Below the pieces are notes generated by a model. The model saw only the letters and a list, made by a program, of their open reading frames with translations, was not told the DNA's origin and searched no databases. Shown here one piece after another: positions 615-47,573 of a stretch of DNA of 64,000 bases. This stretch comes from Vulcanimicrobiota bacterium (GTDB lineage Bacteria > Vulcanimicrobiota > Xenobia > Xenobiales > JADMJV01): assembly GCA_017307785.1 (NCBI GenBank), contig JAFKGI010000012.1:1-64000 (forward strand). Direction: 5' to 3'. A program made the position numbers and the translations under genes. Within the stretch, counting starts at the first letter, position 1, and every line of letters starts with the position of its first letter.

Positions 615-1964
615 TTGTTTTTCGAGAGGGTTATGTCCGAGAACGAAACCGCAGAGACATCCGAGGCTCCCTGGTCGGGAGAGGCATCCCCCCGTGTTTG
701 GACGCGTCAGCACTGGCTGATCCTGGGGGCGATTTTGCTGCTGGGCCTGTTCATGCGGGTGTGTCTGCTGGGCTTTCCACCCAGCAAGTTCTTTGACGAG
801 ATCTATTATGTGGACGCGGCGAACGACTATCTCAAGGGGATTGCCGACGCCAATTCGGTCCATCCTCCGCTGGCCAAGATTCAGCTGGCCGCCACCATAC
901 TGCTTTTTGACGTGGCCAAGCTCAAGGGCTTGGTGCCCTTGGAAGACACCGTCGGCTGGCGTCTGGCTCCGGCCCTGAGCGGAGTGGCCGTGGTCGGCCT
1001 GACCGCCTGGCTCGCCTATGTTCTGGTGGGGCGGCCGCGGGCGGCGCTGCTGGCGGCGGCTCTGGTGGCCGTCGAGCATCTCTCGGTGGCCGAGTCGCGC
1101 ATCTGCACCCTGGATAATATCCAGGTGTTCTGGATCATGCTCGGGATCTGCTGCGGCGCCGAGCGTATTTGGCGCAGCAGTGATGACAAGTGGTTGTGGT
1201 TCTCGGCTCTGGCTCTTGGGGTAGCCACCGGCTGCAAATGGAACGGCTTGTTCGCCGCCACCGGCGTGGTGCTGGGATTGTGGACCATCCGCGTCGGGGA
1301 TCTTCCCAAGTCGCACCCCCTCAAGGTCTTTTTCGTCTACGCCCTGGTCATTCCGGCCATTTATGCGGCTGCTTACATCCCCTACTCCCGCACCCTGGCG
1401 CCGGAGAAGCGCACCATCAGCCAGGTCACCTCCGACGTGGTCGCTCAGCACGTGCGCATGTACAAGTTTCGCAAAGACCCGAAGCAGTTCAAGCATCAAT
1501 ACCTGAGCCCGATGTGGCAATGGCCGTTTGTGATCCGGCCCATCTGGTTCCATTTCCGCAGCGAGCCGGCCAAAATGTGCAGCGGCATCGTCGCTTTCGG
1601 CATGATCCCGTTCTACTGGTTCTCGGTCTATCTGCTGCTCGAGTGCGTGGCCGGCGCCTGGACTCGCCAGTATTGGGACCCCGCCGGTCAGTTTCTCTTT
1701 CTCACCTATGGAACCCAGTATTTTCTCTGGGCCAGCAGCTGGACCGGTTTTTTCTATTATATGCTTCCGATGGTTCCCTTGATGGCGGTAGCCGTGGCGC
1801 GACAGCTGGACAACTGGCTGGACTATCCGGAAAGCCGCAAATGGGCGCTGGGATTCCTGACCTTACTGGCGGTGATGACGCTGCTCTATTTTCCCTTTAT
1901 GGTCGGGCTGACCGTCCCTTACAAGTACTTCCAGGTGCTCTTCTTCTGGCATAGCTGGGTGTAA
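615..1964 (+). CDS. Membrane glycosyltransferase, GT39 / PMT (dolichyl-phosphate-mannose protein mannosyltransferase-like) family
   Basis: 449 aa polytopic membrane protein. N-terminal loop FFDEIYYVDAANDYL and HPPLAK correspond to the DE-motif loop and HPPLxK of PMT-type, phospholipid-carrier-dependent glycosyltransferases. Confidence 0.65.
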   Translation: MFFERVMSENETAETSEAPWSGEASPRVWTRQHWLILGAILLLGLFMRVCLLGFPPSKFFDEIYYVDAANDYLKGIADANSVHPPLAKIQLAATILLFDVAKLKGLVPLEDTVGWRLAPALSGVAVVGLTAWLAYVLVGRPRAALLAAALVAVEHLSVAESRICTLDNIQVFWIMLGICCGAERIWRSSDDKWLWFSALALGVATGCKWNGLFAATGVVLGLWTIRVGDLPKSHPLKVFFVYALVIPAIYAAAYIPYSRTLAPEKRTISQVTSDVVAQHVRMYKFRKDPKQFKHQYLSPMWQWPFVIRPIWFHFRSEPAKMCSGIVAFGMIPFYWFSVYLLLECVAGAWTRQYWDPAGQFLFLTYGTQYFLWASSWTGFFYYMLPMVPLMAVAVARQLDNWLDYPESRKWALGFLTLLAVMTLLYFPFMVGLTVPYKYFQVLFFWHSWV

Positions 1965-10195: not shown

Positions 10196-12958
10196 CTAAG
10201 TTGGTACGGCCATTTTGAAGGCTTGCTCGATGAGCGAAGCCTGTTCGATTTTGTGACTTGCGCCCGAACCCGTGGCCGGACTGGCCGATTCGGGGCGAGA
10301 AATCTGCATAAAGGGATAACGGTCGTAGAGACGATCGTCGAAGCGGCAGTGCAGGAAGGGCAGAGCTCCCATATTGGCCGGTTCTTCTTGCACCCAGATG
10401 GCGGCCGTCTCCTTGGGGAAGACCGAGAGGGCGGCCTTGAGGGACCGATCCGGGAAGGGATAGAGTTGCTCCACGCGCACGATGGCCACGTCCTTGCGGT
10501 TGTGGGCCTTGCGATAAGCGTCCAGCTCATAGAAGAGCTTGCCGCTGCACAGCAACACGCGCTGAACCTTGCTCGAGGGTCCGGCTCCGACATCCGGCAA
10601 CACCCGCTGGAAGCTGCCTTCGGCCATCTCCTTCAGCGGGGTCACGCACTCCGGGTGGCGCAACAGGCTTTTGGGCGACATCACCACCAGCGGTTTGCGC
10701 AACGGGCGCAGAACCTGACGGCGCAGACAGTGGAACAGCTGACCGGGAGTGGTCAGGTTCACGATCTGGATGTTGTCCTCGGCCGCCAGGCTAAGGAAGC
10801 GTTCGAGACGAGCCGAGCTGTGCTCCGGTCCCTGGCCTTCGAAGCCGTGGGGCAAAAGCATCACCAGTCCGTTCAAGCGCGACCACTTGTCTTCGCTGGA
10901 GACGATGAACTGGTCGATGATCACCTGAGCCACGTTGACGAAGTCGCCAAACTGGGCTTCCCAAAGCGTAAGACACTCGGGACGGTCCAGCGACAATCCG
11001 TATTCGAAGGCGAGCACGGCCACCTCGGAAAGCGGGCTATCCCAAACCTGGTAACGAGCCTGTTCCGGGCTTAAATTGTTGAGCGGAATGTACTGCTCAC
11101 CGGTTTCGTAATCGTGGAAGATGGCGTGGCGGTGACTGAAGGTACCGCGGCCCACATCCTGACCGGAAAGACGCACGGGGAAGCCCTGCACGATCAAGCT
11201 GGCATAAGCCAGCAGTTCGGCGGCTCCCCAGTCCAGCGGCCTTTTGCCGGCCGCCATGTCTTTGCGCACTTCCAGGACCATTTTTTGCAGCTTGGGATTG
11301 GTCGTGAAACCCTCGGGAGCTTCGGTCAGCTTGACCAGCAGCGAGGCCAGTTTCTCGGGGTCGACTTCGGTGGCCACTTCCGGGGTGTCCTTGTCCAGGC
11401 CACCACGATAGCCGCCCTGGGTCGACAACTGCTTGTAGTCGTAATCCTTGGCGCGGGCCTTGGCCAGCTCGGCTTCAAGATACTCGCGGCGCTTGGCGGC
11501 GATATCCTCGACTTCGCTGCGTCCCAGAGCCGGCTGAGGCACCTTCATCAGACTTTCCACATAGCGCTCGCGCACCGAGGGCATCTGCGCGATCTGCTTG
11601 TACATGAGCGGCTGCGTGTAGGTGGGGTCATCGCCCTCGTTGTGGCCGCGGCGGCGGTAGCACCACATGTCGACCACCACGTCTTTGTTGAACTTCTTGC
11701 GGTATTCCATGGCCAGTCGAATGGCCTGGGCTACTGCCTCGGGATGCTCACCGTTGACGTGGATGATGGGAATCTGCAGCATTTTGGCCACGTCGGTCGG
11801 ATAGGTTCCGGAGCGTGCCTGCTTGGGCGAGGTGGTAAAACCGACCTGGTTGTTGACGATGATGTGGATGGTCCCGCCCACCGAGTAGCCGGCGATCTCG
11901 CTCATGTTGAGCATTTCCTGGACCACGCCCTGACCCGCGAAGGCGGCGTCGCCGTGAATGACCAGGCCCATCACGCGCTGGTGAGCACCCTGGCCCAGCT
12001 TCTCCTGACGAGCGCGCACGCGGCCGAGCACCACCGGTCCCACGAACTCGAGGTGAGAGGGGTTGAAGCACAGAGCCAGGTCAATCTTTTTGCCGGTGGA
12101 GGTGGTCCAGACGCTGGTGTAACCCAGATGGTATTTGACGTCGCCACGGCCGAAGTGCAGCTCGGGGTTGGTGTCGTCAAATTCCCGGAAAATTTGGCCG
12201 GGGTCTTTCTGCATGATGTTGGCCATCACGTTGAGACGACCGCGATGGGCCATACCGATGACGATGTCCTCGATGCCGAATTCGCCGGCGTCTTCGAGAG
12301 CCAGGTCGAGCAAGGGAATCAAGCTCTCGGCACCTTCCAGGCCGAAGCGCTTGGCGCCCACGTATTTTTTGGCGATGAACTCTTCGAACATCTCGGCGTC
12401 GGTCAGCCGGGTCAGAATACGAATCTGCTCGGCGTGACTGAGAGAACGGACGTTCTGGGTGGTTTCCATGGTCTGCTGGAGCCAGAACTTGGGCTCCGGG
12501 TCGTCGATATGCATATACTGCACGCCCACCGCGCGGCAGTAGGTGTTCTGCAGCACCTGCAGGATGTGCTGCAGGGTCACCGCCTCTTTCATCCCCAGGG
12601 ACAGCGCCCAGAAGCGGGTCTGCAGGTCGGCCTCGGTCAGTCCGTAATGGTCGAGCTGCAGCTCCGGGAAGGGAGCGGGCTCGCTGCCCAGCGGGTCGAG
12701 CCAGGCGGTGCGGTGACCGCGCACGCGATAGGCACGGATCAGCTGGTCAACGCGCTCTTGCTTGAAGGCGTCGCCTTCTTTGCTGACGGGTGGATTGAAG
12801 ATGGTGCTGGGTTCGTAGCTCGGACCCAGGGCCAGCCGCTGCCCGTTGATGCCTTCCTTTTCGAAATAGCTGCGCCAGGCCGGGTCGACGGCGGCCGGGT
12901 TGCGCTGGTATTCCTTGAGGACGTCTTCGACGAAGTCGAGATTATCCGCGTTAATCAT
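10196..12958 (-). CDS. sucA: 2-oxoglutarate dehydrogenase E1 component
   Basis: ~920 aa ThDP enzyme with strong full-length E1o similarity (MINADNLDFVEDVLKEYQRNP... N-terminus). Start set to the ATG at 12958, with AGGAG upstream. The track ORF extends 28 codons further. Confidence 0.9.
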   Translation of the reverse strand: MINADNLDFVEDVLKEYQRNPAAVDPAWRSYFEKEGINGQRLALGPSYEPSTIFNPPVSKEGDAFKQERVDQLIRAYRVRGHRTAWLDPLGSEPAPFPELQLDHYGLTEADLQTRFWALSLGMKEAVTLQHILQVLQNTYCRAVGVQYMHIDDPEPKFWLQQTMETTQNVRSLSHAEQIRILTRLTDAEMFEEFIAKKYVGAKRFGLEGAESLIPLLDLALEDAGEFGIEDIVIGMAHRGRLNVMANIMQKDPGQIFREFDDTNPELHFGRGDVKYHLGYTSVWTTSTGKKIDLALCFNPSHLEFVGPVVLGRVRARQEKLGQGAHQRVMGLVIHGDAAFAGQGVVQEMLNMSEIAGYSVGGTIHIIVNNQVGFTTSPKQARSGTYPTDVAKMLQIPIIHVNGEHPEAVAQAIRLAMEYRKKFNKDVVVDMWCYRRRGHNEGDDPTYTQPLMYKQIAQMPSVRERYVESLMKVPQPALGRSEVEDIAAKRREYLEAELAKARAKDYDYKQLSTQGGYRGGLDKDTPEVATEVDPEKLASLLVKLTEAPEGFTTNPKLQKMVLEVRKDMAAGKRPLDWGAAELLAYASLIVQGFPVRLSGQDVGRGTFSHRHAIFHDYETGEQYIPLNNLSPEQARYQVWDSPLSEVAVLAFEYGLSLDRPECLTLWEAQFGDFVNVAQVIIDQFIVSSEDKWSRLNGLVMLLPHGFEGQGPEHSSARLERFLSLAAEDNIQIVNLTTPGQLFHCLRRQVLRPLRKPLVVMSPKSLLRHPECVTPLKEMAEGSFQRVLPDVGAGPSSKVQRVLLCSGKLFYELDAYRKAHNRKDVAIVRVEQLYPFPDRSLKAALSVFPKETAAIWVQEEPANMGALPFLHCRFDDRLYDRYPFMQISRPESASPATGSGASHKIEQASLIEQAFKMAVPT

Positions 12959-12968
12959 TGAGCCACTC

Positions 12969-14324
12969 CTAGGATTTGACCGGGTCCCGCAGCAGCACGA
13001 ATTCTTCGGCGGCGGTGGGATGAACGGCCAGGGTTCGATCAAAGTCTTGCTTGCTCGCCCCGCAAGTAAGGGCTACGGCCAGAGCCTGAATGATTTCCGG
13101 AGCGTCCGACCCCACCATGTGGCAGCCCAGAACCAGCTGGTTGGAGCGACGCACCACCAGCTTCATCATCACTTTTTCCGGCTTGTCCGGCAGCGTGTAT
13201 TTCATCGGCCGAAAACTGGTGCGGTAAACGTCGATGTCGCCAGGATTGCTCTCTTCGGCCTGCTCCTGGGTGAGGCCCACCGTTCCCACAGCCGGCTGCG
13301 TAAAGACGGCCGTCGGAACGTGGTGAGGACGAAAGTCCGCGTTCGGATCCTGAAAAAGTCGGGCGGCCAGCGCGCGTCCTTGCGCGATGGCGTAGGGAGT
13401 GAGCTGCACCCCGCCCACGCAGTCGCCTACGGCGAAAATACTCTCGACGCTGGTGCGGCAATGCTCGTCGGTGAGCACCTCGCCCTTTTCGCCCAGGTTG
13501 ACGCCGACTTCCTGAAGACCCAGGCCTTCGGTGTTGGGCACGCGACCGGTGGCGGCCACGAAGATCTCGGACTTCCACGAGCCCTGATCGGTGTGGACTT
13601 CGATCTGGTCACCGGTCTGCGTGAGCTTTTCCAGGCTGGCTCCCGTAACAAAACGGATGCCACGGCTCTCCATCTGCTCTTTCAGGACTTTGCGCACGTC
13701 GCCGTCCATCTCGGGCAGAGGCAGGTCACTGCGGAACATGACGGTCACTTCGGACCCAAGGCCGGCGAAGATGCCGGCGAATTCCAGGCCGATGTAGCCG
13801 CTGCCCATCAAGGTGACGGACTTGGGAAGCTGCTTGAGATGAAACAGATCGTCGGAAGTGAGGGCCAGTTCTTTGCCCGGTTTGTCCGGCACCCAGGACT
13901 TGCCGCCCACGGCGATGGCCAGATATTTGCCGCTGACTTTCTTCTCCCCCACCTGAACGGTGTGAGCGTCGAGCACGCGGGCGCTGCCTTCGAAGCGAGC
14001 CACTTCAGAGCCGTCCAGCAGCTTGCGGTAGACGCCGTTGAGTCGGTCCAGCTCTTTGTCTTTGTTGGCCATCAGCTTCGTCCAGTCGAAGTCGGGAGCG
14101 GCCGATTCAAAGCCATAGCCGGGAAGCAGGGCCAGTTCGGAGCGGAGCGAGCTGGCGTAAACCATCAGCTTTTTGGGCACACAGCCGCGATGCACGCAGG
14201 TGCCGCCGTACTCGGACTGCTCGCAAATGGCGACTTTCGCGCCATAGAGCGCCGCACGCCGGGCCAGTCCCACTCCCCCAGAACCGGCTCCAATCACCAC
14301 CAGATCGTAGTCATATTGAGCCAT
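12969..14324 (-). CDS. gor: Glutathione-disulfide reductase
   Basis: 451 aa. MAQYDYDLVVIGAGSGG...GGTCVHRGCVPKKLM and C-terminal AVHPTAAEEFV are close to the E. coli Gor signature (GGTCVNVGCVPKK / AIHPTAAEEFV). Ends 10 nt upstream of sucA with an AGGAG in the spacer, so it is probably co-transcribed. Confidence 0.8.
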   Translation of the reverse strand: MAQYDYDLVVIGAGSGGVGLARRAALYGAKVAICEQSEYGGTCVHRGCVPKKLMVYASSLRSELALLPGYGFESAAPDFDWTKLMANKDKELDRLNGVYRKLLDGSEVARFEGSARVLDAHTVQVGEKKVSGKYLAIAVGGKSWVPDKPGKELALTSDDLFHLKQLPKSVTLMGSGYIGLEFAGIFAGLGSEVTVMFRSDLPLPEMDGDVRKVLKEQMESRGIRFVTGASLEKLTQTGDQIEVHTDQGSWKSEIFVAATGRVPNTEGLGLQEVGVNLGEKGEVLTDEHCRTSVESIFAVGDCVGGVQLTPYAIAQGRALAARLFQDPNADFRPHHVPTAVFTQPAVGTVGLTQEQAEESNPGDIDVYRTSFRPMKYTLPDKPEKVMMKLVVRRSNQLVLGCHMVGSDAPEIIQALAVALTCGASKQDFDRTLAVHPTAAEEFVLLRDPVKS

Positions 14325-14408
14325 AAAAATCCCCTTTGCGCCCCGCCAAGCGAGTCCTGCCCCCTATTTAGAAGGGTGCGCGCCGACACGACGCGTAGGC
14401 CTGAGCTT

Positions 14409-15233
14409 ATGAATGAACGATGGTGGGCGCGCACGATGCGCTTTCTACGCTATCCCGTCTTTCGCCATATTCTCGGGGGCGTAGTTTTTTTCTGTGTCTA
14501 TGGTTGGCTGAGCATGCGCTACGAAATCCTGATCCTCGGCGAGGATCTGGAATTCCCGGCCAGCGTGAACACGCTGCTGGGCGTTTCGCTGTCGGTGCTG
14601 ATCGTTTTCCGCACCAACGGCAGCTACGACCGCTGGTGGGAAGGCCGTAAGCTCTGGGGCCTTCTGGTCAACCGCTCGCGTTCTCTGGCGGCGGTGGTGT
14701 GGAGCGCGCAATGTCTGCCCCTGGAGGAACGGCGCCGCTTCCTGGACACGCTGGGCGAGTTTGCCTACAAGTTGCGCGATCACTTGCGAGGACCGTGGCC
14801 GGCGCCGGACAATGTCCCCCAGCGCTTGCTCAACACTCTGAGCCAACAACTGGGCCGCTGGGATCACCAGGGCCTGGTTCCCACCCATCTTTTTCTGGCC
14901 ATCGAGCGCAACATGAATGAGTTTTACGACATTCACGGCGCCTGCGAACGCATTCGTGGAACCCCGCTGCCGCTCAGCCACCGGGCCATCGTGCCCCAGG
15001 GCATTTTCATCTACCTGCTGGCCCTACCCTGGGGCCTGCCCCACGGACCGGTGTCGATCACCATCATCGGGGTGGTCGCCTACTTCCTGATCAGCCTGGA
15101 AATGATCGCCGAGGAAATCGAAGAGCCCTTCGGTCAGGACCCCGACGACCTGCCCCTGACCCGCACCTGCGTCAACATCAACGCCGGCCTGCAACGCCAA
15201 CTCGAACTCCCGGGCGAACTGGAACCGGCTTAA
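14409..15233 (+). CDS. Bestrophin-like / UPF0187 (YneE) family anion channel homolog
   Basis: 274 aa. SYDRWWEGRKLWG and IAEEIEEPFGQDPDDLPL match the family's conserved motifs, and four hydrophobic segments are present. Only the C-terminal part of track ORF 12900..15233 is real; its first 1.5 kb is antisense to gor. Confidence 0.7.
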   Translation: MNERWWARTMRFLRYPVFRHILGGVVFFCVYGWLSMRYEILILGEDLEFPASVNTLLGVSLSVLIVFRTNGSYDRWWEGRKLWGLLVNRSRSLAAVVWSAQCLPLEERRRFLDTLGEFAYKLRDHLRGPWPAPDNVPQRLLNTLSQQLGRWDHQGLVPTHLFLAIERNMNEFYDIHGACERIRGTPLPLSHRAIVPQGIFIYLLALPWGLPHGPVSITIIGVVAYFLISLEMIAEEIEEPFGQDPDDLPLTRTCVNINAGLQRQLELPGELEPA

Positions 15234-15403: not shown

Positions 15404-18097
15404 TTAGAGGCGGATGCCGACGGGGAGGGCTTCGCCGAGGAGGGCGGCGGCTTCTTGTTGGGCGCCGACCTGGCCGTCGAGGCTGGCCAGGTGGTTTTGG
15501 AGGCCTTCTTTTTCCAGGCGGTTGCGCACGCGCTCGACCTGATCCTCGGGGAAGTCCCGTTTGATGTCATCGGTTTTCCGCATCATGGCGGACAGGGCCC
15601 AGCCCACGGTTTCCTTCTCGCTCCACTTGGAGTCGAGGATCTTGCTGATCCAGGGCCAGACGGCGTCGGGGGGGACGACCCATTGAGGTCCGGCGCCGAG
15701 CAAATTGCGGGTGCCGATACGGGCGATGCGCCAGAGGTCGTCGCGAGTGCCCTGGAACTTCTTCATAATGATTTCTCCCAGCAGCACCTTGTCGGCCACC
15801 GGGATCTGCGAGAGGGACACGGCCAGACGCAGCAACTCGTTGTCCTCGGCGATGCTGCGCTGGTGCGGCACGCGGGTTTTCCAGTGCTTACGCCCCGGGA
15901 TCATCACGGCCGCCAGCTGGGTCCAAAGCTGCTCTTGACGAGCCACACTCATGCCGGCGGCCAGGCGGCGCAGCGTTACCCACAACTCCATGCGAACCGG
16001 CTCGAGCTTGGGGAACTGCAGCCAGGAATCGAGCAGAGCCGAGGTCTTCTCTACGCGCCAGGCGTCGAGCTTGGAGCCGGTGCCGGGACGCAGGCAGTAA
16101 CCGACGCCGTTGAGCCAGCTCTGCTCATACTCGGGCTCCACGCGACGGCGCTGATGCACGTCCACGAAGCCATCCCAGAGAGCGCGTAGCAGGGCCACCG
16201 ACCAGAGTTGGCGACCCAGCCCGAAGTGCTGCTCCAGATTGGCCAACAGGCTGCGCGGGCGCACGCCCGAGCCCAGTCCCTTGGGCTTGCGCAGAAAGGC
16301 CTCGGCAATGGTGTCCTTGGCCTGCTTGACGACTTCCGGAGGAAATTCCGGGCCGCCTTCCAGCACCACATCGCCGCGCAGCGGGAACTCAAGCTGAAAG
16401 CGGCGCTTGCCCTCGAGCATGCGGCAAGCGATCGAGAGCGTTCCGATCTCGGTGACCTCGCCGGAGAGCAACACCGGCACTTCGGTCACCTTCAGGTCGG
16501 GAGCGCGCACCACCGTTTCCATGGCCGGCAAAACTTGAAACTCGGACTCTTCGCTGCCCGCAGCCGCGATATCCACCAGCGCTCCGGGCTGGTCTTCGGG
16601 TCGGTTGGAGCTGCTGAAGATGGGAAAGCGCACCGGGCGCTCCAGGGTGAGCTGCAAGATGGGCTCGGGCAAGTCCACGCGCGAGCCGGCCTCGAGGTTA
16701 CGCGGAACCACGCACAGGGCCTGGGTCGACTCTCCGTCGCTGCTCAGCTGCAGATAGTAGCTGCGGGCGATACCGCCGCCGATGCGCTTGCCGCCGCTAC
16801 GCTTGAGGTGGCCGTAGTAGGCGGCTCCACGGGCCACCGAGAGGTCGGACTCGGGATTGATCAATTCCTCGACCGGACCACCACGCCAGGACTCCAGAAT
16901 CTGTAGCAGGCGCTGACGAATGGCCAGAGCTCGGCAGGCGCCACCATTGAAGAGAATTTTATTGGGGACATTGTCTTTGCGACCATGGCGGCGCAGGAAG
17001 CTGCTCAGATGGCGCGGCACGGCCGGATCACTGGCGTAGGGCAGTCCCCACTCTTTGAAGCCGAGCCGGCGTTCGGCCTGCAACGGCTCGTCGATAGGCA
17101 CGGCCGGGAAGAAGCCGTCCAGCACCAGCTTCTCCACTTCCTCGCGGGAAAGGTCGGCCTGCAGCGTGCCGGCCACCAGCTTGGAGCCGGAGCCGGGCAC
17201 GGTCACGGTCACCTTCTCGGGGGGCTCGTCGCCGAGCAGCAGTTCCTTGGCGCGGCGGCACTCGTTGCGTAACACCCCCCACTGCAGAATGTCCAATTTG
17301 GCGCCCAGACGCGGTTCCACCAGGTAGGCCAGGGCGATGTCCAGGTTATCGCCGCCCAGCATCAAGTGCTCGCCCACGGCTACGCGACGCAGGCCTTTGT
17401 CGGCATACTCAATCAAGGTAAAGTCGCTGGTGCCGCCGCCGATGTCGCAGACCAGAATCTGATCGCCCTGCTGAAGATTGACCGGGCTCTCCACGCTCAA
17501 GCCGTTGGCGTAGAGGTAATGATAGAAGGCCGCCTGCGGTTCTTCCAGCAGCGTGATCTTGTCGAGACCGGCCTGGCGCGCGGCCGACACGGTGAGCTCT
17601 CGAGCCAGCTCGTCAAACGAAGCCGGAACCGTCAACACGATTTCGCACTCATCCAACGGGTGGTCCGGGTACTGATGGCGGAAAGCCTCGCGCAAATGCT
17701 CGAGATAACGGCGCGAAGCCTCGACTGGAGAAACGCGGGGCGCGTCGGGCGCGCCGTCCCAGGGCAGCAACGGCTGACTGGGGTCGGCCTGACGATGGGC
17801 CAGCCAGGACTTGGCCGAAACGACCACGCGACCGGGCACGCGGGAGCCCTGCACGCGGGCGAACTCGCCCACCATAAAGTCGCGCTTTTCGTCCCAGGGC
17901 AGAGCCAGCGAACCTTCCGGCAGTTCGTGGGCGCCCGGCAGGTAGAGGAATGAAGGAAGCAGCGACTGTTCGCGGACTTCCGATTCCGAGACCCGCTGCG
18001 TCAGCTTGAGTGTCTCAATCTCACCACGATCTCCGATGATTCGCGCCAGGGCCGTGTTGGAGGTGCCCAGGTCGATGCCGACCAGCCAGTTGCTCAT
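15404..18097 (-). CDS. Hsp70-fold ATPase paralog (897 aa) with ~400-aa non-DnaK C-terminal extension
   Basis: N-terminal actin/Hsp70 NBD motifs GIDLGTSNTA (phosphate-1), CDIGGGTSDF (phosphate-2) and GGDNLD. No canonical DnaK substrate-binding domain or EEVD tail. The long C-terminal region is predicted helical. Its start overlaps the stop of the upstream paralog by 4 nt. Confidence 0.75.
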   Translation of the reverse strand: MSNWLVGIDLGTSNTALARIIGDRGEIETLKLTQRVSESEVREQSLLPSFLYLPGAHELPEGSLALPWDEKRDFMVGEFARVQGSRVPGRVVVSAKSWLAHRQADPSQPLLPWDGAPDAPRVSPVEASRRYLEHLREAFRHQYPDHPLDECEIVLTVPASFDELARELTVSAARQAGLDKITLLEEPQAAFYHYLYANGLSVESPVNLQQGDQILVCDIGGGTSDFTLIEYADKGLRRVAVGEHLMLGGDNLDIALAYLVEPRLGAKLDILQWGVLRNECRRAKELLLGDEPPEKVTVTVPGSGSKLVAGTLQADLSREEVEKLVLDGFFPAVPIDEPLQAERRLGFKEWGLPYASDPAVPRHLSSFLRRHGRKDNVPNKILFNGGACRALAIRQRLLQILESWRGGPVEELINPESDLSVARGAAYYGHLKRSGGKRIGGGIARSYYLQLSSDGESTQALCVVPRNLEAGSRVDLPEPILQLTLERPVRFPIFSSSNRPEDQPGALVDIAAAGSEESEFQVLPAMETVVRAPDLKVTEVPVLLSGEVTEIGTLSIACRMLEGKRRFQLEFPLRGDVVLEGGPEFPPEVVKQAKDTIAEAFLRKPKGLGSGVRPRSLLANLEQHFGLGRQLWSVALLRALWDGFVDVHQRRRVEPEYEQSWLNGVGYCLRPGTGSKLDAWRVEKTSALLDSWLQFPKLEPVRMELWVTLRRLAAGMSVARQEQLWTQLAAVMIPGRKHWKTRVPHQRSIAEDNELLRLAVSLSQIPVADKVLLGEIIMKKFQGTRDDLWRIARIGTRNLLGAGPQWVVPPDAVWPWISKILDSKWSEKETVGWALSAMMRKTDDIKRDFPEDQVERVRNRLEKEGLQNHLASLDGQVGAQQEAAALLGEALPVGIRL

Positions 18098-19836
18098 TTC
18101 TTTTCTCGCACTTCAAATTCAAGTTTCCAGCGGCCCGTGCCGCCTCTTTGCTGACACCAGAGCTCCAGTGTCCCCACCTCGGTGGCCACCGTCTGCAGTT
18201 GCACGGGAACCACCGGTTGATCGACCTCGGAGCTGCGCAGAATGCTGGTGACGGTGGCGATCTGCTCGATTTCGTCCTCATCTTCCCAGTCGTCCACTGT
18301 CTGACCGGGCTGGTCTTCGACGCGCTGGTTGCTGGTCATGAAGGGAAACTCCACCAACTCACCCAGCACCAGCCCCAACTCCAGGCCCGGCAGGTCCACC
18401 GTGGCGCCCTCTTCCATCCCCTGGGGAGCCACGCAAATGGCCTTGGTCGGGGGAGCGAACCCGGGAACGGCCGGACGGGCGACCTCCACTCCGATGTAAT
18501 AGGAACGGGGCAGGCCGCCGCGGATGCGGATGCCGCCCTGCAGGCGAGCTCGACCGTAGGCGGCGGCACCGCGGGCCACGGCCAGATCGCAATCCTGGTT
18601 CGGCAGCACCTTGACCGGCTCGTCCAACCAACTGTTCAGGACTTCCAGCACTCGCTGCTGGACGCCCGGAGATTTGCACACGCCGCCGTTGAAGAGAATG
18701 GCGGTGGGCTTGATAAACTCGCCGCCCTGGTGGAGAAAGCGGGCCAGATGCTTGGTGATGGCCGGATCCGACTCGTAGGGCAGTCCCAGTTCGGTCAGAC
18801 CGAAGCGGCGCTGGCGCTGGGCGAAGTCCTGAGCGCCGACCTTCGGGAAGAATCCGTCCAGGATGACCTTCTCGACTTCGCTGCGGTTGATCTCGGTCGA
18901 AGTGGAGCCAAGCAACATCTTGGCGCCGCGACCCGGAATGGTCAGGGGGGAAAGTTCCAGCGGGTCGGTGGCCAGCATCTTCTCTTTGGCGTTACGGCAC
19001 AGGTGAGTCAACACCTGAAACTGCCAGGAGTCGATTTTCTGTCCTTCGGCGCGCAAGCGCGCCTGCACGGTGGCGGCCAGACTCAGATCCATGTTGTCGC
19101 CGCCCAGCAGCAAGTGGTCGCCCACGGCCACGCGGGTCAAGCTCAGTTGGCCCTCTTCTTCGTCCACTCGAATGAGGGTGAAGTCGGAGGTGCCGCCGCC
19201 CAGGTCGCAGACCAGAATGTGATCGCCCAGCTTGACCGCTTCGCGCCAGGAATCCCCCATCTGCTCCAGCCAGGCGTAGAAGGCGGCCTGCGGCTCTTCC
19301 AGCAAGGTCAGATTTTCCAACCCGGCTCGCTGAGCCGCCTCCACCGTGAGCTCGCGAGCGACGGCGTCGAAGCTGGCGGGCACGGTCAGAAAGACGGAAT
19401 GTTCATCCAGGCTGCCCCCCAGCCGCGAAAAGCGCCAGGAGTCGGCCAGATGGCGAAGATAGCGGGTGGTCACCTCGACCGGCGACAGCTTGGGGACTTC
19501 TTCCGGCGACTTCCAGGGCAGCAACGGCTGTTGTCGGTCCACTTGAGCGTTGCACAGCCAGCTCTTGGCCGAGACGATCAGTCGGTCGGGCACCCGTGAG
19601 CCTTCGTCGCGAGCCATGGTTCCCACGGCGAACTCGGCCACTTCATCCCAGGGCAGCGACAGGCTTCCCAGCGCGAACTCATGCTGCGAGGGCAGGTAGA
19701 GATAGGAGGGCAAGGTGGGGCGAGCTTCGATCTCTTCGGGAGCCACCAGTTGGGGGATGGCGAAGTCGTGGACGCTTTCTTCTCCCACGTAAGAGAGGGC
19801 GCAGTTGGTGGTCCCCAGGTCAATTCCAACGATCAC
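18094..19836 (-). CDS. Hsp70-fold ATPase paralog (580 aa)
   Basis: GIDLGTTNCA, CDLGGGTSDF and GGDNMD NBD motifs, followed by a ~200-aa C-terminal domain. Overlaps the DUF2760 gene upstream and the 897-aa paralog downstream by 4 nt each. Confidence 0.75.
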   Translation of the reverse strand: MIVGIDLGTTNCALSYVGEESVHDFAIPQLVAPEEIEARPTLPSYLYLPSQHEFALGSLSLPWDEVAEFAVGTMARDEGSRVPDRLIVSAKSWLCNAQVDRQQPLLPWKSPEEVPKLSPVEVTTRYLRHLADSWRFSRLGGSLDEHSVFLTVPASFDAVARELTVEAAQRAGLENLTLLEEPQAAFYAWLEQMGDSWREAVKLGDHILVCDLGGGTSDFTLIRVDEEEGQLSLTRVAVGDHLLLGGDNMDLSLAATVQARLRAEGQKIDSWQFQVLTHLCRNAKEKMLATDPLELSPLTIPGRGAKMLLGSTSTEINRSEVEKVILDGFFPKVGAQDFAQRQRRFGLTELGLPYESDPAITKHLARFLHQGGEFIKPTAILFNGGVCKSPGVQQRVLEVLNSWLDEPVKVLPNQDCDLAVARGAAAYGRARLQGGIRIRGGLPRSYYIGVEVARPAVPGFAPPTKAICVAPQGMEEGATVDLPGLELGLVLGELVEFPFMTSNQRVEDQPGQTVDDWEDEDEIEQIATVTSILRSSEVDQPVVPVQLQTVATEVGTLELWCQQRGGTGRWKLEFEVREKK

Positions 19837-20312
19837 AACTCCACCTCCGCGGGCACCAAAATATCTAAAGTCTTGAGTTCAGGCAATTTGGCCGAAGCCA
19901 GTTTCCAGCCGTGATGGCGCAACGTCCCCTGAAAGGGAGGGTCGCCCTGCACCTTACCGACCAGGCGAATCTCGGCGGGACTGAAGCCTTCAGGGACCTG
20001 CACTTTGTCGCCGTCCTTTTCCGGTAGAACCGGTTCCAGCACCAGATACTGCTGCAGCACCTTGGCACAGCCGATGTGGACTCCTCGCGCCACCCCACCG
20101 ACTTGAGCATCGGGAAAGCCCTCCAGACTCTCGCTGAGAAAGTCCAGCAAGCGACCTTCCTTTTGAAGCGCGGCCAGCAGTTGAGCGGCCGTGGCCGGAG
20201 GCGGCCCGGGCGGAAGAGCTTTCATCTCCTTGAGCAAGTCATCCACTTTCTTGGAGAACTGGCGGTTGAAGAGAGCCTTGAAAAAAGCTCGAAAGGCGGT
20301 TGTCAATCCCAT
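19833..20312 (-). CDS. DUF2760-like small protein, first gene of the Hsp70-paralog operon
   Basis: 159 aa, MGLTTAFRAFFKALF... The family assignment is from memory: DUF2760 is a small protein family typically encoded next to non-canonical Hsp70 genes. Gene order and 4-nt coupling support a real gene. Confidence 0.5.
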   Translation of the reverse strand: MGLTTAFRAFFKALFNRQFSKKVDDLLKEMKALPPGPPPATAAQLLAALQKEGRLLDFLSESLEGFPDAQVGGVARGVHIGCAKVLQQYLVLEPVLPEKDGDKVQVPEGFSPAEIRLVGKVQGDPPFQGTLRHHGWKLASAKLPELKTLDILVPAEVEL

Positions 20313-25362: not shown

Positions 25363-25991
25363 TGCTGTCCCAACTGCTCGATATCTATGAACAACTCTGG
25401 ATGCGCGACGACTCGCCCTGGGCCGCTCACGAAGCCGACAGCCTCGGGCGGATGCGCCAGTTCCTGGCCAGCTCTCCGGAGGTATTTCAACGTTCCCATA
25501 TTCCCGGCCACTTCACCGGATCGGCGCTGGTTTGCGATCCGCATCTGACCCGGGTGGCCCTGACCCATCACACCAAGCTCGACAAGTGGCTACAGTTTGG
25601 CGGCCACGCCGACGGCGATGACAATCTGGCGCGGGTGGCGCTGCGCGAGGCCGAAGAAGAGAGCGGACTGCCCAGGCTCAACTATCTGGATTTTGAAGAG
25701 GCGCTCGGCTGCCCGCATCATCCGGTTCCCTTCGATCTGGACATCCACGAAATTCCGGCCCGAGGCTCCGAGCCCGCCCACCTCCACTACGACGTTCGTT
25801 TCGTGGTGGTCAGCCAGACTCAGGCGCTCCAGATGAACGAGGAATCCCAACAACTCGGCTGGTTCAGCCTGGCGGAAGCTCGAGAAAAGACTCAGGAAGA
25901 GTCGATGCTACGCCAGTTTCAGAAGCTGGAGCTGCTGCATCGCACGCTGGTCAAACAACCCACAGAAATATCCACTTCTCCTCAACGGTAA
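25362..25991 (+). CDS. NUDIX hydrolase
   Basis: Nudix box GGHADGDDNLARVALREAEEESGL (GX5EX7REUXEEXGU). The start overlaps the ABC gene stop (ATGA). Confidence 0.75.
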   Translation: MLSQLLDIYEQLWMRDDSPWAAHEADSLGRMRQFLASSPEVFQRSHIPGHFTGSALVCDPHLTRVALTHHTKLDKWLQFGGHADGDDNLARVALREAEEESGLPRLNYLDFEEALGCPHHPVPFDLDIHEIPARGSEPAHLHYDVRFVVVSQTQALQMNEESQQLGWFSLAEAREKTQEESMLRQFQKLELLHRTLVKQPTEISTSPQR

Positions 25992-26354
25992 TGCGCTGCT
26001 GAGCCGGCCAGTCTCCCATATCGAAGCTATGCGAGACGAGCCGGGTTCCGGGCGGAAGCTCTCGACGCAACTTGGGCAGCAGTTTGGCATTGACCGAATG
26101 GAGTAAATAGAGGGCAACGACGGTAGCCCCCGTCAAATCCGCATCGAAGAAGTTGCCGGTGCGGAACTCCGTCCGCTCGGACTGACCGGCGGCGCTCGCG
26201 TTTTCTCGACTGCGCAGGACCAGCGACGGATCGATGTCGATTCCGACTCCGCGCGCGCCCCGCTCGGCCGCTCCTATGACCAGGCGGCCATCCCCGCCAG
26301 CATGCCGGCTACCACAGCGGGCGGCGAGGCCACGTAACGAATGTCCTTTTTCAT
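25951..26354 (-). pseudogene. Small class I SAM-dependent methyltransferase, disrupted (frameshift/internal deletion)
   Basis: ATG at ~26354 with AAGGAG upstream opens MKKDIRYVASPPAVVAGMLAGMAAWS*. A different frame then continues ...GGDGRLVIGAAERGARGVGIDIDPSLV...GNFFDADLTGATVVALYL...LVSHSFDMGDW. That is a typical ~180-aa MTase whose motif I (DLGSGDGR) is truncated at the frame junction. The track ORF start at 26400 would read through the upstream terminator hairpin. Confidence 0.45.
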
Positions 26355-26392
26355 CGGGGCTCCTTCTCGCCGGCTCCTGCCTGGTTCCCCTG

Positions 26393-26433
26393 AAAAGCAA
26401 AAAGAGCTGTCTCCGAAGAGACAGCTCTTTTTT
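26393..26433. terminator. Bidirectional intrinsic terminator (perfect 10-bp GC-rich hairpin between A- and T-tracts)
   Basis: AAAAGCAAAAA-GAGCTGTCTC-CGAA-GAGACAGCTC-TTTTTT. On the − strand it directly follows the stop of the Gly/Met-rich gene (26443). Confidence 0.7.
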
Positions 26434-26442
26434 AGCTCTGGC

Positions 26443-26925
26443 TTAAAACAGAGGACGGGGGCCGGCCATCGCGCCCATCGGACCGACACCGGCGAAGGCG
26501 CCGGGCATTCCGCCACCCATCATCGGGTTGCCTCCGCCCATCGCGCCCATCTGGGCCTGCAGCTTCTGCATCTTGTGCATCAGCTTGCGCATCTTCTTCA
26601 TCTTGTGACCGCCTCCGCAGGGGCCGCAGCCACCCGGGCCACCGGGGCCGCCCGGGCCACCGAAGGAGTTACCGAAGTTGGGGGTGCCCTGCGGGCCACC
26701 GAAGCCGCCAAAACCACCTGGTCCGGCCGAAGCGAAGGCTCCGGGTCCGCCGGCCGAGGCGAAAGCACCACCGGCGCTGGCCACTGCGGTTGCGCCTCCG
26801 GCCGAGGCGACGGCGCCGCCGCCGAGTCCGTTGAAGAGAGATTGTCCGACTCCCCCGCCGGCCATTGCCATCGCGCTGGCCTGAGCTTGCTGTAAGGGGT
26901 TAACTCCAAAGCTGGTTCCGAACAT
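26443..26925 (-). CDS. Glycine/methionine-rich low-complexity protein (hypothetical)
   Basis: Start set to the ATG at 26925, with GGGAGG 8 nt upstream. 160 aa: MFGTSFGVNPLQQAQ..., long GGxG/AGG/PGG tracts, CGPCGGGH, a basic helix HKMKKMRKLMHKMQKLQAQM, then MGAMGGGNPMMGGGMPGAF. No signal peptide. A strong terminator lies downstream. Confidence 0.55.
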   Translation of the reverse strand: MFGTSFGVNPLQQAQASAMAMAGGGVGQSLFNGLGGGAVASAGGATAVASAGGAFASAGGPGAFASAGPGGFGGFGGPQGTPNFGNSFGGPGGPGGPGGCGPCGGGHKMKKMRKLMHKMQKLQAQMGAMGGGNPMMGGGMPGAFAGVGPMGAMAGPRPLF

Positions 26926-45295: not shown

Positions 45296-46243
45296 TTACC
45301 GATAAGGTGTGACGCGGCTGGGTGCGACCCATTCGTCCGGGTAATCTTGGGCCAGGCCCATCCAGTGGACGAGTACGCCGCGATGGCCCTGTTCCACCAC
45401 CCGCGCCTTCCAATTCGACCCGTCGGCAAAGACGCTCACATAAGCCCCCTCCCCCGCCCGCAGCGGTCGGGCCGTGCGAATCCAGGGAGTGGTATCCGGG
45501 AAGAGCGGAGAGCCGGAGCCGCCTGCCTTCTGGTTCTCGGCGAACTGCATATCCTTTTCCACTTGCTGGGACATCTCGGCCAGGCTGATGACACCATCGC
45601 CGTTGGTATCACAGCGCGGGTCGCCGCCCAGAGCATCGAGCAGACAGTCGGTGAAAGTCCAATTGCCGGTGCTGCTCAGACGAGCGGTCGAGGAGGAGAG
45701 AGCGAAGAAGCCGATGTTGCTGACGTTGCGCCTGGCGGCCAGGCGCATCGCGCCGGAGTGGCAACAGTCCGCCGATAGGAAGACCCGGCTTCCCTTGAAC
45801 AACCGGTTGACGTCGCGTTCGATACCGCGCAGGCCCCACAGCGTGTCTACGTCATAGCCGTCGTAGGGCACCATCCAAAAAGTCCGGTCCGCCTCGTCGC
45901 GATAGCCGTGGCCGGCATAGTAAAGAATCAAGGTGTCGCCGGGACGGCATTTTCCTAGAATCTTCATAAAGGCGTCGTGAATGCCCTGACGGGTTGCATC
46001 CCGGTCCAGCAGCAGAGTCACCTGATCGGGAGGAACGCCCAGCCGCTGATAGGCCAGAGCCAGGCGAACGTCCCGCCGATTGGTTTTGGGAAAGCTTGGA
46101 TAGACGTCGGAACGAGCCCACTCCAGACATCCGACCGCGAACACCCAGGTGCGCTTCGGGTCCAGTCCGTCGGCCGCGGTCGGCCCCTGAGCCCAGGCCC
46201 AGACGGTCAACGCCAGCCAGCAGGCCAACAACCGTCTAATCAC
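45296..46243 (-). CDS. Secreted orthocaspase (peptidase C14, metacaspase-like) with EF-hand-like Ca-binding loop
   Basis: Signal peptide; catalytic His in YYAGHGY and catalytic Cys in DCCHSG, matching the metacaspase dyad context. C-terminal DTNGDGVISLAEM is an EF-hand/dockerin-type loop, followed by a small beta-rich module. Confidence 0.7.
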   Translation of the reverse strand: MIRRLLACWLALTVWAWAQGPTAADGLDPKRTWVFAVGCLEWARSDVYPSFPKTNRRDVRLALAYQRLGVPPDQVTLLLDRDATRQGIHDAFMKILGKCRPGDTLILYYAGHGYRDEADRTFWMVPYDGYDVDTLWGLRGIERDVNRLFKGSRVFLSADCCHSGAMRLAARRNVSNIGFFALSSSTARLSSTGNWTFTDCLLDALGGDPRCDTNGDGVISLAEMSQQVEKDMQFAENQKAGGSGSPLFPDTTPWIRTARPLRAGEGAYVSVFADGSNWKARVVEQGHRGVLVHWMGLAQDYPDEWVAPSRVTPYR

Positions 46244-47573
46244 TCATCACCCAGGTTGCGGCGATTTGAGCTCCCGCCTTGACATTGGTGACATCGCTAT
46301 CGGAGACACGAACCAGCGGATCGGCAACCGCCGCTCCAAACATGTAGGGATCGAAGTCGAAGCGAAAATCCTCGAACTTCCAGCCGTCTTCCAAGGGCAC
46401 CGGAAACTCGGCGTGGGGGATGTGCACGCGGCGCTGCGCCACGTAGCGGTCTTTCACGGCCTCTTCGATGGCCCGCTCCCATGCCAGATCGTCCATTTCC
46501 CAGCCCAGGTAGAGACCCTGACCACCGTAGCCATCGGCCGGCTTCAGAATGGTCTGCTCGCGCTCCTGACGCAGTTTGTCCAGCAGCGGCCCATCCTCGA
46601 CGATGGTGGTCCACGGCACCAGCGAGCGCAAGAAAGTCAGGTCGGATTTGTTCAGCAAAGTCTCAAACTCGGGGCGGTGCACCCAGGAGAGCAGAGACTT
46701 GACGGTCAGCGGCTTGCAGGCAAAGGAGTTGACCACGCACACGGCCTCTTCGCGGTAGGCGTTCAAGAAAGGCCGAGCCGCCTCGGCGTGAGCCAGCAAA
46801 TCTTCCACCAGGACGCGACGATAGACGAGATCGATAACTTTTCCATCGTAGTCGAGCAACTTTCCGTCCCGGTATTCTAGTTCCCGGGGATCGCAAATCA
46901 CCGTTTCGTAGCCGAGACGATTGTAACGCAACTTCAGCAGTTCGAACTCGCTGGCGGTGTTGACCGTGATCCAGTCGACCACGGCAATGCGCGGCTTGCC
47001 CTTGCCGCCCCACTGTTCCCAGGACTTCAAAAGCAAGGGCAGGTCACGGCTATCGGTGGCCAGATAGCGACCGGGGAATTCTTTGGCCAATCGCTTCCAC
47101 AAGGACGTTTTTTTCAGGAGCCGCACGCATTCGTCCATAAAGGCCGCGCCGCCCGGGCTATCCACGTTGAGCTCCACAATCTGATAGCCGATCTCTCCGT
47201 TGGAAAAATCCAGGAAGCCATCCACTCGGGAGATATACTCACCGGCTTTGAGACGGCTGGGCCACTGAATCAGTTGCTGCTCGGTCCGGGAAATTCCCAG
47301 GCGGTCCAGCCATTGAGTGGTGCGCAGAGGCTCTTCGAGCTTGGCCAGCACGCGCACCAGTCGGCGCATCTGATCCTGCAACGGCTTGAGGTGAGCCTGA
47401 CGCATCAAAGCGGGCGCGATGCAGATCGGCAAAGGCTTTCCTTGAAAGAGGATGCCTCGCTTGGTCAGACCCTTTTCAATTTCCGCGTATTCCTGACGGG
47501 TGCCGGCAGGGTCCGCTTCCAGATGCTGCCGAATAAAATCGAATGCTGCTCTACAATAGGGGTCTGGAATCAT
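46236..47573 (-). CDS. Circularly permuted ATP-grasp family enzyme (GSP-synthetase / CP_ATPgrasp-like)
   Basis: The Mg/ATP 'ELN' block (IVELNVDSPGG, ~res 135) lies before the Gly-rich B-loop (TILKPADGYGGQGLYLGW, ~res 340). That is the circularly permuted order. Overlaps the orthocaspase start by 8 nt. Confidence 0.55.
   Translation of the reverse strand: MIPDPYCRAAFDFIRQHLEADPAGTRQEYAEIEKGLTKRGILFQGKPLPICIAPALMRQAHLKPLQDQMRRLVRVLAKLEEPLRTTQWLDRLGISRTEQQLIQWPSRLKAGEYISRVDGFLDFSNGEIGYQIVELNVDSPGGAAFMDECVRLLKKTSLWKRLAKEFPGRYLATDSRDLPLLLKSWEQWGGKGKPRIAVVDWITVNTASEFELLKLRYNRLGYETVICDPRELEYRDGKLLDYDGKVIDLVYRRVLVEDLLAHAEAARPFLNAYREEAVCVVNSFACKPLTVKSLLSWVHRPEFETLLNKSDLTFLRSLVPWTTIVEDGPLLDKLRQEREQTILKPADGYGGQGLYLGWEMDDLAWERAIEEAVKDRYVAQRRVHIPHAEFPVPLEDGWKFEDFRFDFDPYMFGAAVADPLVRVSDSDVTNVKAGAQIAATWVMSD

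Follow-up and report, generated by a model that had tools for sequence, protein, structure and literature searches.

The 64,000-nucleotide stretch of DNA analyzed here, namely positions 1 to 64,000 of contig JAFKGI010000012.1 of a Vulcanimicrobiota bacterium (assembly GCA_017307785.1) and hereafter called the window, carries on its minus strand a gene for a small protein in which two charge-free low-complexity arms flank a single cationic amphipathic helix lined with methionine. On sequence comparison, this protein belongs to a previously undescribed family from a narrow group of uncultivated Eremiobacterota-like bacteria, and its architecture is unusual for bacteria. By analogy with known phase-forming proteins, it is tentatively proposed that the family acts as a cohesive scaffold which forms a gel or condensate and which is anchored or oligomerized through its helix. 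A self-sticking gel or coat of this kind is considered more likely than a classical copper-binding site. A first-pass annotation, made from the nucleotide letters alone, had described a disordered Gly/Met-rich protein and had proposed both soft-metal binding and a phase-separating or elastomeric character; its observations were confirmed, while its interpretation is only partly supported, as the Met/His argument for Cu(I)/Ag(I) binding did not hold. The gene is defined as follows.

26443..26925, minus strand: coding sequence of 160 amino acids, rich in Gly, Ala, Met, Pro and Phe, running from an ATG at 26925 to a TAA at 26445-26443, and backed by its translation, homologues, ratio of nonsynonymous to synonymous substitution rates (dN/dS) and codon usage.

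Translation of the minus strand yields exactly the 160-residue protein that had been described, MFGTSFGVNPLQQAQASAMAMAGGGVGQSLFNGLGGGAVASAGGATAVASAGGAFASAGGPGAFASAGPGGFGGFGGPQGTPNFGNSFGGPGGPGGPGGCGPCGGGHKMKKMRKLMHKMQKLQAQMGAMGGGNPMMGGGMPGAFAGVGPMGAMAGPRPLF, including the three segments to which attention had been drawn, i.e. CGPCGGGH (residues 100-107), HKMKKMRKLMHKMQKLQAQM (107-126) and MGAMGGGNPMMGGGMP (126-141). Its composition is strongly biased (G 31.2%, A 15%, M 8.8%, P 8.8%, F 6.9%), Asp and Glu are completely absent, and all eight Lys/Arg residues lie within the helix with the exception of R157, giving an isoelectric point of 10.7 and a grand average of hydropathy (GRAVY) of +0.09. Hydropathy analysis and inspection revealed neither a transmembrane segment nor a hydrophobic core resembling that of a signal peptide (maximum hydropathy over 19 residues, 1.24), and upon inspection the first eight residues contain no Lys or Arg and no basic n-region, so that the cytoplasmic location previously assigned to the protein agrees with the lack of a detectable export signal.

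The family comprises approximately 29 homologues of 136-188 residues that share the same domain order. It appears to be rare and lineage-restricted, because only four loci were recovered among 185,579 species genomes scanned, two of which are from metagenome-assembled genomes labelled Vulcanimicrobiota and a third from a genome with an "EREM" isolate label. Vulcanimicrobiota is the current NCBI name of a phylum that includes the classes Vulcanimicrobiia and Candidatus Xenobia, and according to one abstract it is equated with Candidatus Eremiobacterota/WPS-2. An exhaustive HMMER profile scan of 1.84 billion representative sequences returned 18 matches at E < 1e-3, while a word-indexed homology search, which was saturated by low-complexity candidates, returned two, or 13 when a profile was used. 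Further members were obtained from JGI metagenomes, and the remaining ones originate from bioreactor, anaerobic-digester and similar metagenomes. Searches of Pfam, NCBIfam, PHROGs, PADLOC and the sequences of the PDB produced no match for either the window protein or its homologues (none of 18 members in Pfam, and none in the PDB sequences). Several loci contain paralogue clusters arranged as separate and often convergent units, with three copies in L015/L016 and two each in L018/L019 and L023/L024 (L numbers designate loci that carry family members), and no second copy is present within the window.

Column conservation was counted over 29 sequences, and Cys-pair and charge statistics over 27 members. 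The protein can be divided into four parts, which are listed from the N- to the C-terminus; confidence in the structural models is expressed as the predicted local distance difference test score (pLDDT).

26629..26925, minus strand: N-terminal uncharged low-complexity domain, residues 1-99, with pLDDT below 50 and no charged residues.

26605..26628, minus strand: CGPCGGGH, residues 100-107, read from the translation, with the Cys pair C100/C103 immediately 5' of the helix.

26539..26610, minus strand: cationic amphipathic helix, residues 106-129, defined by column conservation and by the AlphaFold block (pLDDT 89 and 76).

26446..26547, minus strand: C-terminal Gly/Met/Pro tail, residues 127-160, defined by column conservation, with its R-(P)-L-F end at 26446-26457.

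The helix is the only part that AlphaFold2, supplied with family alignments, predicts with confidence (residues 106-129 of the window protein and 90-118 of the homologue P0002), mean pLDDT over the entire chains being 52 and 51, respectively. For the window protein 97 of the 160 residues score below 50, and this prediction supports the intrinsic disorder that had been expected. The helix, of roughly 22 residues in the family, is also conserved in the alignment, with the consensus K-M-(K/R)2-L-M-(K/R)-K-M-x-(K/R)-L-M-A-Q-M-G-G. Among the 29 sequences, K111 is conserved in 27, M112 in 23, L115 in 25, M116 in 27, K118 in 27, L122 in 25, M126 in 25 and G127 in 27; position 119 is Met, Leu or Ile in all 29 and Met in 16, and position 123 is Met in 23, so that Met occupies positions 112, 116, 123 and 126 in 23-27 of the sequences. 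In heptad terms Met falls at positions a and e, Leu at d, and Lys/Arg at b, c, f and g; the a/d/e face of the window helix consists of M112, L115, M116, M119, L122, Q123 and M126. For the window, an 18-residue segment has a hydrophobic moment of 0.49 and a net charge of +6, and across the family these values range from 0.49 to 0.80 and from +4 to +9, with five to nine Lys/Arg on the polar face.

The regions surrounding the helix retain a common character despite their low complexity. Family members begin with either MFGTxFGxNPLQQAQ or MGGVxKVxxxQ, which is followed by a strand-like I-S-I-A-M-S-L-S-x-G-L-G segment in most members or by SLFNGLGG, and then by G-A-F-A-(S/Q)-A-G, present one to four times and frequently accompanied by GPGG or GPNG. 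In the window protein, residues 1-99 contain MFGTSFGVNPLQQAQ, SLFNGLGG, two copies of GAFASAG, GGFGGFGG, PNFGNSFGG and PGGPGGPGG. The segment preceding the helix contains N-F-G and a sequence of the GPQNPFQAGFQQG type across the family. A C-x(0-3)-C pair, usually as CGCG (CGPCG in the window), is present in 23 of 27 members, although its position drifts from approximately 35 residues before the helix to right at the helix; L010 has C-x4-C, and three members possess no Cys, two of these being adjacent to a Cys-containing paralogue. At the C-terminus R157 is conserved in 27 and L159 in 24 of 29 sequences, and position 160 is Phe in 19, Val in seven, Ile in two and Leu in one, whereas the Met richness of the tail (MGAMGGGNPMMGGGMP in the window) is limited to the close clade of the window protein and is replaced by Phe, Gly and Pro in other members. 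Acidic residues number zero to three per member, and basic ones are limited to the helix, a single N-terminal Lys and the C-terminal Arg. Outside the helix, the median gap is seven residues between aromatic positions and three between hydrophobic ones, which recur about every three to four positions, and the linkers between them consist of G 36%, A 19%, P 12%, Q 11%, N 8%, S 7% and D+E 0.7%. Family GRAVY values extend from -0.41 to +0.31, and Met accounts for 3-9% of residues.

The suggestion that the Gly-rich tracts indicate a phase-separating or elastomeric protein is in keeping with the family-wide composition, with a hydrophobic or aromatic residue at about every third or fourth position, uncharged linkers and less than 1% of Asp plus Glu. 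Two properties that characterize phases of the phenylalanine-glycine (FG) or tyrosine-glycine (YG) type are found in the family, namely hydrophobic or aromatic residues separated by short, uncharged Gly/Ser-rich linkers, and an adjacent conserved amphipathic helix, here the sole element modelled with confidence. For example, in PEX13 a charge-free Tyr/Gly domain, whose Gly/Ser linkers are short, precedes an amphipathic helix that is essential, and the protein forms a hydrogel phase resembling that of the FG nucleoporins (PMC9795577). The family resembles the YG domain of PEX13 and FG nucleoporins of the Nsp1/Nup49/Nup57 type, in which FG regions are combined with a coiled coil, in that an uncharged sticker domain precedes an amphipathic helix, and this helix, being its only ordered and conserved element, may be likened to theirs. 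On the other hand, there is no sequence homology with these proteins, the family is bacterial, the window protein is only 160 residues long, and neither a transmembrane segment nor an SH3 domain is present. The stickers are Phe, Met and Leu, in place of the Tyr used by PEX13 or the Phe within FG repeats, the helix is much more basic than its counterparts and has low-complexity tails on both sides, and the CxC pair and R-L-F terminus are without equivalent in PEX13 or the FG nucleoporins; for the present family, moreover, gel formation is only predicted. A looser analogy may be drawn with elastin and spider silk, with which the family shares Gly/Pro/Ala-rich hydrophobic domains around a Lys-rich alpha-helix, as in the cross-linking domains of tropoelastin, as well as GPGG/GPGA and GAFASAG blocks. 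Unlike those proteins, it carries its motifs in only a few copies and not as a long tandem array, is predicted to be intracellular, lacks an associated lysyl oxidase and displays no homology to them.

In the mechanism that we propose, the two uncharged flanks would be cohesive, engaging in multivalent weak hydrophobic or beta-type contacts that would give rise to a gel, coat or condensate, with Phe, Met and Leu acting as stickers within linkers of Gly, Ala, Pro, Gln, Asn and Ser. The cationic helix would supply a more specific contact, either by bundling into a coiled coil with a Met/Leu core or, alternatively, by lying on an anionic surface (for example, inner membrane, nucleic acid or polyphosphate) that would also neutralize its charge. 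The Cys pair may cross-link chains through a disulfide or a shared metal, and the R-L-F end probably serves as a tag for docking or turnover. A role as a structural component is also suggested by the paralogue clusters (L015 has three copies, L018 and L023 two each), as these are expected for such a component. Several points weigh against this scaffold. Low pLDDT does not prove disorder, the protein is short and its 11 aromatic residues are fewer than those of typical FG or YG domains, and no conserved partner gene was detected, the neighborhoods differing beyond close relatives. Furthermore, a pure sticker-spacer model would leave unexplained why Met rather than Leu is retained at four to five helix positions, as well as the preserved CxC pair and the presumed partner of R-L-F, and in the absence of a polyanion a helix of +6 to +9 would be expected to oppose homomeric bundling.

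A more far-reaching version of the same analogy would make the family a convergent counterpart of FG-nucleoporin and PEX13-YG barriers, held by its helix on the cytoplasmic membrane or about a compartment built of protein, docked to a scaffold through R-L-F, and forming a mesh, tuned by the redox or metal state of CxC, that acts as a gel-like phase of selective permeability. This is regarded as very improbable; it would constitute the first prokaryotic selective-phase protein of such a kind. A major vault protein (MVP) homologue encoded 1.4 kb away may be mentioned in this regard, although the linkage is not conserved.

To our knowledge, few bacterial proteins organize the cytoplasm by means of cohesive low-complexity domains, and almost none of these are uncharged and FG/YG-like. 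The general layout of a cohesive low-complexity protein with an amphipathic helix is already known, while the family itself, as far as sequence comparison extends, is without homology to any described one. Its clean architecture, with two charge-free arms, a Met-lined cationic helix, a Cys pair and a C-terminal tripeptide, would provide a compact and testable prokaryotic sticker-spacer model, and the family marks the cell biology of an uncultivated Vulcanimicrobiota/Eremiobacterota branch. If instead the Met stripe and CxC bind Cu(I) or Ag(I), the protein would represent an unusual Met-based metal buffer of the cytoplasm, and either outcome, scaffold or metal buffer, would be new.

The alternative that survives best, while still unlikely, is that the protein binds or buffers a soft metal (Cu(I), Ag(I) or possibly Zn) through a Met stripe stacked by oligomerization, comparable to the MxxxM rings of Ctr1 or to SilE-type helices, together with CxC/CxxC thiolates, the metal driving folding or assembly. 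Met-based Cu/Ag sites are typically periplasmic, which also applies to the Met-rich regions in PcoA and CueO, whereas cytoplasmic sites use Cys. The first-pass annotation had likened the Met-x-x-Met/His clusters to such Cu(I)/Ag(I) sites, and this part of it was not upheld: His107 and His117 are each His in one of 29 sequences, the Met-rich tail is specific to one clade, there is no signal peptide, and no cop, cus, sil or pco gene is present in the 64-kb window, nor any metal-resistance gene in the homologous loci examined. SilE and PcoE, by comparison, are periplasmic proteins encoded within sil/pco operons, with repeated MxxH/HxxM motifs and ten positionally conserved His residues (PMC5008109). 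The family is like them, and like the Met-rich inserts of PcoA, CopA and CueO, in being small, predicted to be disordered and furnished with Met at i and i+3/i+4 along one face of a helix, a placement shared with the SilE motifs (PMC5008109), and the window protein alone adds HxM/MH spacings. It differs in having no conserved His, one helix only, no signal peptide and no metal operon. Thus, membership in the SilE/PcoE type fails because His is unconserved, the Met tail is clade-specific, a signal peptide is missing, Lys/Arg surround the Met face and metal genes are not linked. In favor of a metal-related function, the sulfur ligands count with the best conserved positions of an otherwise degenerate sequence (M112, M116, M123 and M126, and to a lesser extent M119), the Cys pair is widespread, and the tail of the window clade contributes MxxM/MM clusters. 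Nevertheless, the five to nine Lys/Arg flanking the Met face would disfavor cations, the Cys pair shifts its position and is missing from three members, and most members have replaced the Met-rich tail by Phe, Gly and Pro. This reading, along with that of a redox-active or bristle-like Met surface considered below, is kept in play because the retained helix Met residues and CxC pair are not explained by a purely cohesive model.

There is a slim chance that the protein is an exported fibre or matrix component resembling silk, elastin or amyloid, which would leave the cell non-classically or upon lysis and be cross-linked through Cys outside it. The GPGG-type and Ala-rich motifs, the strand-like I-S-I-A-M-S-L-S segment and the paralogue clusters are reminiscent of secreted structural proteins, a Cys pair would be more useful in an oxidizing compartment, and a GspE-like ATPase gene adjoins family genes in L023/L024 and L007, while an adjacent partial open reading frame (ORF) in L008 is similar, by inspection only, to the N-terminal part of one. 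Nonetheless, no member has a Sec, Tat, lipoprotein or pilin-type signal, the ATPase gene is not linked in the window or in L009, L010, L014, L015, L018 and L020, and only zero to seven GPxG motifs occur per protein, with no long tandem array.

A function in stress protection, with the Met residues forming a bristle-like holdase surface or a sacrificial antioxidant and the Gly-rich arms serving as entropic spacers, is given a low probability and ranked after export. It would account for the conservation of Met rather than Leu on the hydrophobic face and for the Met content of the family, and the conserved non-sigma-70 promoter-like block described below suggests conditional expression. A precedent is offered by chloroplast Hsp21, for which a methionine-rich region with an amphipathic helix has been described in flexible client-binding arms (PMC5427286). 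The M domain of SRP54/Ffh from the signal recognition particle (SRP) is likewise reported to present a Met-lined hydrophobic helix face on flexible segments (PMC4497383). The family differs from both in having no SRP or alpha-crystallin domain and in its extremely basic polar face, with five to nine Lys/Arg. In addition, no small heat-shock or other chaperone domain is present, and within the 64-kb window the gene is linked neither to msr nor to a stress operon. Protectants of the hydrophilin, dehydrin or late embryogenesis abundant type were excluded as candidates, as the GRAVY of the window protein and its family is close to zero and not strongly negative.

It is highly improbable that the gene encodes a Gly-rich bacteriocin or microcin, or the precursor of a ribosomally synthesized and post-translationally modified peptide. 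The protein is Gly/Ala-rich with Cys, an ATP-binding cassette (ABC) ATPase gene lies 1 kb away, and P450 and type III polyketide synthase genes are abundant in the lineage, but the N-termini (MFGT... or MGGV...) contain no double-glycine leader, and the adjacent genes include neither a C39-peptidase ABC exporter nor any for immunity or modification. The ABC protein is an ATPase-only, DrrA-like one separated from the gene by a degraded methyltransferase and then a NUDIX gene, the neighborhoods are not conserved, and a length of 136-188 residues with a conserved internal helix would be atypical.

Finally, a spurious ORF of GC-rich DNA or a non-coding element, as might be suspected from the long ORFs that high GC generates in several frames here and from the lack of matches to database families, is effectively refuted by conserved coding and flanking signals, and on this evidence the gene is real and conserved. 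The homologues are 37-86% identical with a common start/stop architecture, the indels between them are in-frame, and pairwise dN/dS values of 0.17-0.44, with dS saturated, indicate that selection on the family is purifying. Gene calls on 16 contigs give the identical protein; these contigs stem from several data sets of bioreactor and wastewater origin, among them NCBI assembly GCA_001724515.1, and the exact gene is carried by thiocyanate-bioreactor samples such as PRJNA279279/KANT15 and SRR13325156. Synonymous codon choice matches that of neighboring genes (GGC, GCC, CCC, AAG, TTC), with avoidance of GGG (one of 50 Gly codons, versus 15% in reference genes; P = 0.003), and the elevated GC content of the gene (0.675) is due to its Gly/Ala/Pro codons, the excess arising at codon position 2. 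The overlapping ORFs at 26341..26895 (plus strand) and 26598..27068 (minus strand) show no comparable conservation or codon support, and a search of Rfam identified no RNA family in the region. An extension to an upstream TTG start (26443..27027) was rejected, as the equivalent stretch of L010 is in another frame and all homologues begin with MFGT or MGGV.

The gene appears to be a stand-alone unit whose signals are consistent with high or regulated expression. The strong ribosome-binding site and perfect terminator that had been attributed to it are both present, and both recur in homologues. The following elements can be delineated around it.

26934..26939, minus strand: Shine-Dalgarno sequence GGGAGG, 8 nt 5' of the ATG, read from the sequence and identical in L009 and L010.

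26390..26432, minus strand: intrinsic terminator with a 15-bp perfect stem and UUCG loop (26399-26432) and a GCUUUUC tail, supported by fold energy and compensatory changes.

26999..27058, minus strand: promoter- or operator-like block consisting of GTTTACAATCTGGTAAC (27058-27042), TGTTAC (27026-27021) and TGACAT (27004-26999), invariant in the window, L009 and L010.

The Shine-Dalgarno sequence and approximately 130 nt upstream of it are nearly invariant among these three loci, and distant homologues have Shine-Dalgarno sequences of the GAGGA type. In predicted folds of the same three loci, CCCUCCC (26954..26961, minus strand), some 30 nt upstream, can pair with GGGAGG; this CCUCCC/GGGAGG pairing is confined to the window clade, is absent from distant homologues and is not significant. 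The terminator hairpin begins 11 nt past the stop codon and folds at -28.3 kcal/mol (z = -3.7 versus shuffles), and compensatory changes preserve its stem in L009 and L010, a covariation among close relatives. It had been missed by a simple terminator scan because its U-run sits partly inside the stem, and as A- and T-runs are present on both flanks it may work bidirectionally. Abundant expression, which had been anticipated, is plausible in view of the Shine-Dalgarno sequence, terminator and GGG avoidance.

The upstream block is shared more widely. GTTTACA-N5-GGTAAC, TGTTACA and TGACAT/GGTGAC are common to orthologues and paralogues, including those of L007, L013, L015 and L018, and keep a constant spacing from the ATG; in many members, the start codon is preceded by TGTTAC(A) at 90-101 nt and by TGACAT/GGTGAC at 76-82 nt. 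The 17-mer GTTTACAATCTGGTAAC occurs once in the window, versus 0.03 occurrences expected by chance. A promoter scan of the upstream region detected no sigma-70-like site or consensus, and a sigma-54 promoter was rejected on inspection since TGTTAC-N5-TTGCA lacks the GG doublet. The conserved arrangement suggests a shared non-sigma-70 promoter or operator with a 5' untranslated region of approximately 70 nt, and the block may function as an alternative-sigma promoter or as an operator. This untranslated region folds no more stably than shuffled controls, and with no match in Rfam a regulatory RNA was rejected.

In the window, the gene is monocistronic and divergent from a small lipoprotein-like gene (27170..27625) and from a gene for a DUF1570 protein with an HExxH motif; downstream follow, in order, a degraded methyltransferase, NUDIX, an ABC ATPase, ApbA and EF-P. 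Synteny (DUF1570, the small lipoprotein-like gene, NUDIX, ABC and ApbA) extends only to L009 and L010, and more distant members have unrelated neighbors. P450 genes and, at some loci, genes for a GspE-like ATPase recur near the family, which looks like residual synteny rather than an operon. In L023 (4157..7449), and also in L024, two paralogues flank a gene for a 700-residue ATPase that combines an FHA domain, a zinc ribbon and a GspE/PilB-like module. In L007, a GspE-like ATPase gene survives as frameshifted remnants convergent with the family gene, and a partial ORF following the family gene in L008 resembles, by inspection only, the N-terminus of a GspE-type ATPase.

The degraded methyltransferase gene lies past the terminator (25951..26400, minus strand, with a start remnant at 26354) and resembles archaeal protein-lysine N-methyltransferases of the aKMT type (NF041081, E = 3e-25). 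A 46-nt deletion has removed its motif-I region, SLARVGPDDLVYDLG, and shifted the frame, such that MKKDIRYVASPPAVVAGML... is now out of frame with ...GDGRLVIGAAE, and it is probably a pseudogene in the window; L009 has an intact copy (10550..10999) and L010 has none. A link with the family had been attractive because the helix is Lys-rich, but an obligatory one was rejected in view of the frameshifting deletion in the window and the absence from L010.

Upstream, on the same strand and 1.4 kb away, the MVP homologue (28352..30784, minus strand, 810 residues) matches MVP_shoulder (1e-25), Vault_3 (4e-11) and, weakly, SPFH/Band_7, and it does not adjoin the family gene in L009 or L010. Reports of MVP homologues in bacteria mainly concern gliding Myxococcales, Cytophagales and Oscillatoriales (bioRxiv 10.1101/872010), a list that may be extended by this Eremiobacterota-like homologue. 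The DUF1570 protein (27610..28410, plus strand) carries, by inspection, its HExxH motif as LIHESNHALL, and the 3' end of its ORF overlaps the convergent 3' end of the MVP gene by 59 nt. Elsewhere in the window, two consecutive HSP70-family genes (15404..20312, minus strand; 897 residues with DUF3731, and 580 residues) are preceded by a DUF2760 gene, a cluster which looks like a non-canonical Hsp70 module. A caspase-like Peptidase_C14 gene directly downstream of a circularly permuted ATP-grasp gene (45296..47573, minus strand) may form with it a signalling or defence module. Several domains of a eukaryote-like character are encoded by a PMT-family protein O-mannosyltransferase gene (615..1964, plus strand), a gene for a bestrophin-domain protein (12900..15233, plus strand) and one for a 1039-residue HEAT-repeat/cNMP-binding protein (54976..58095, minus strand).

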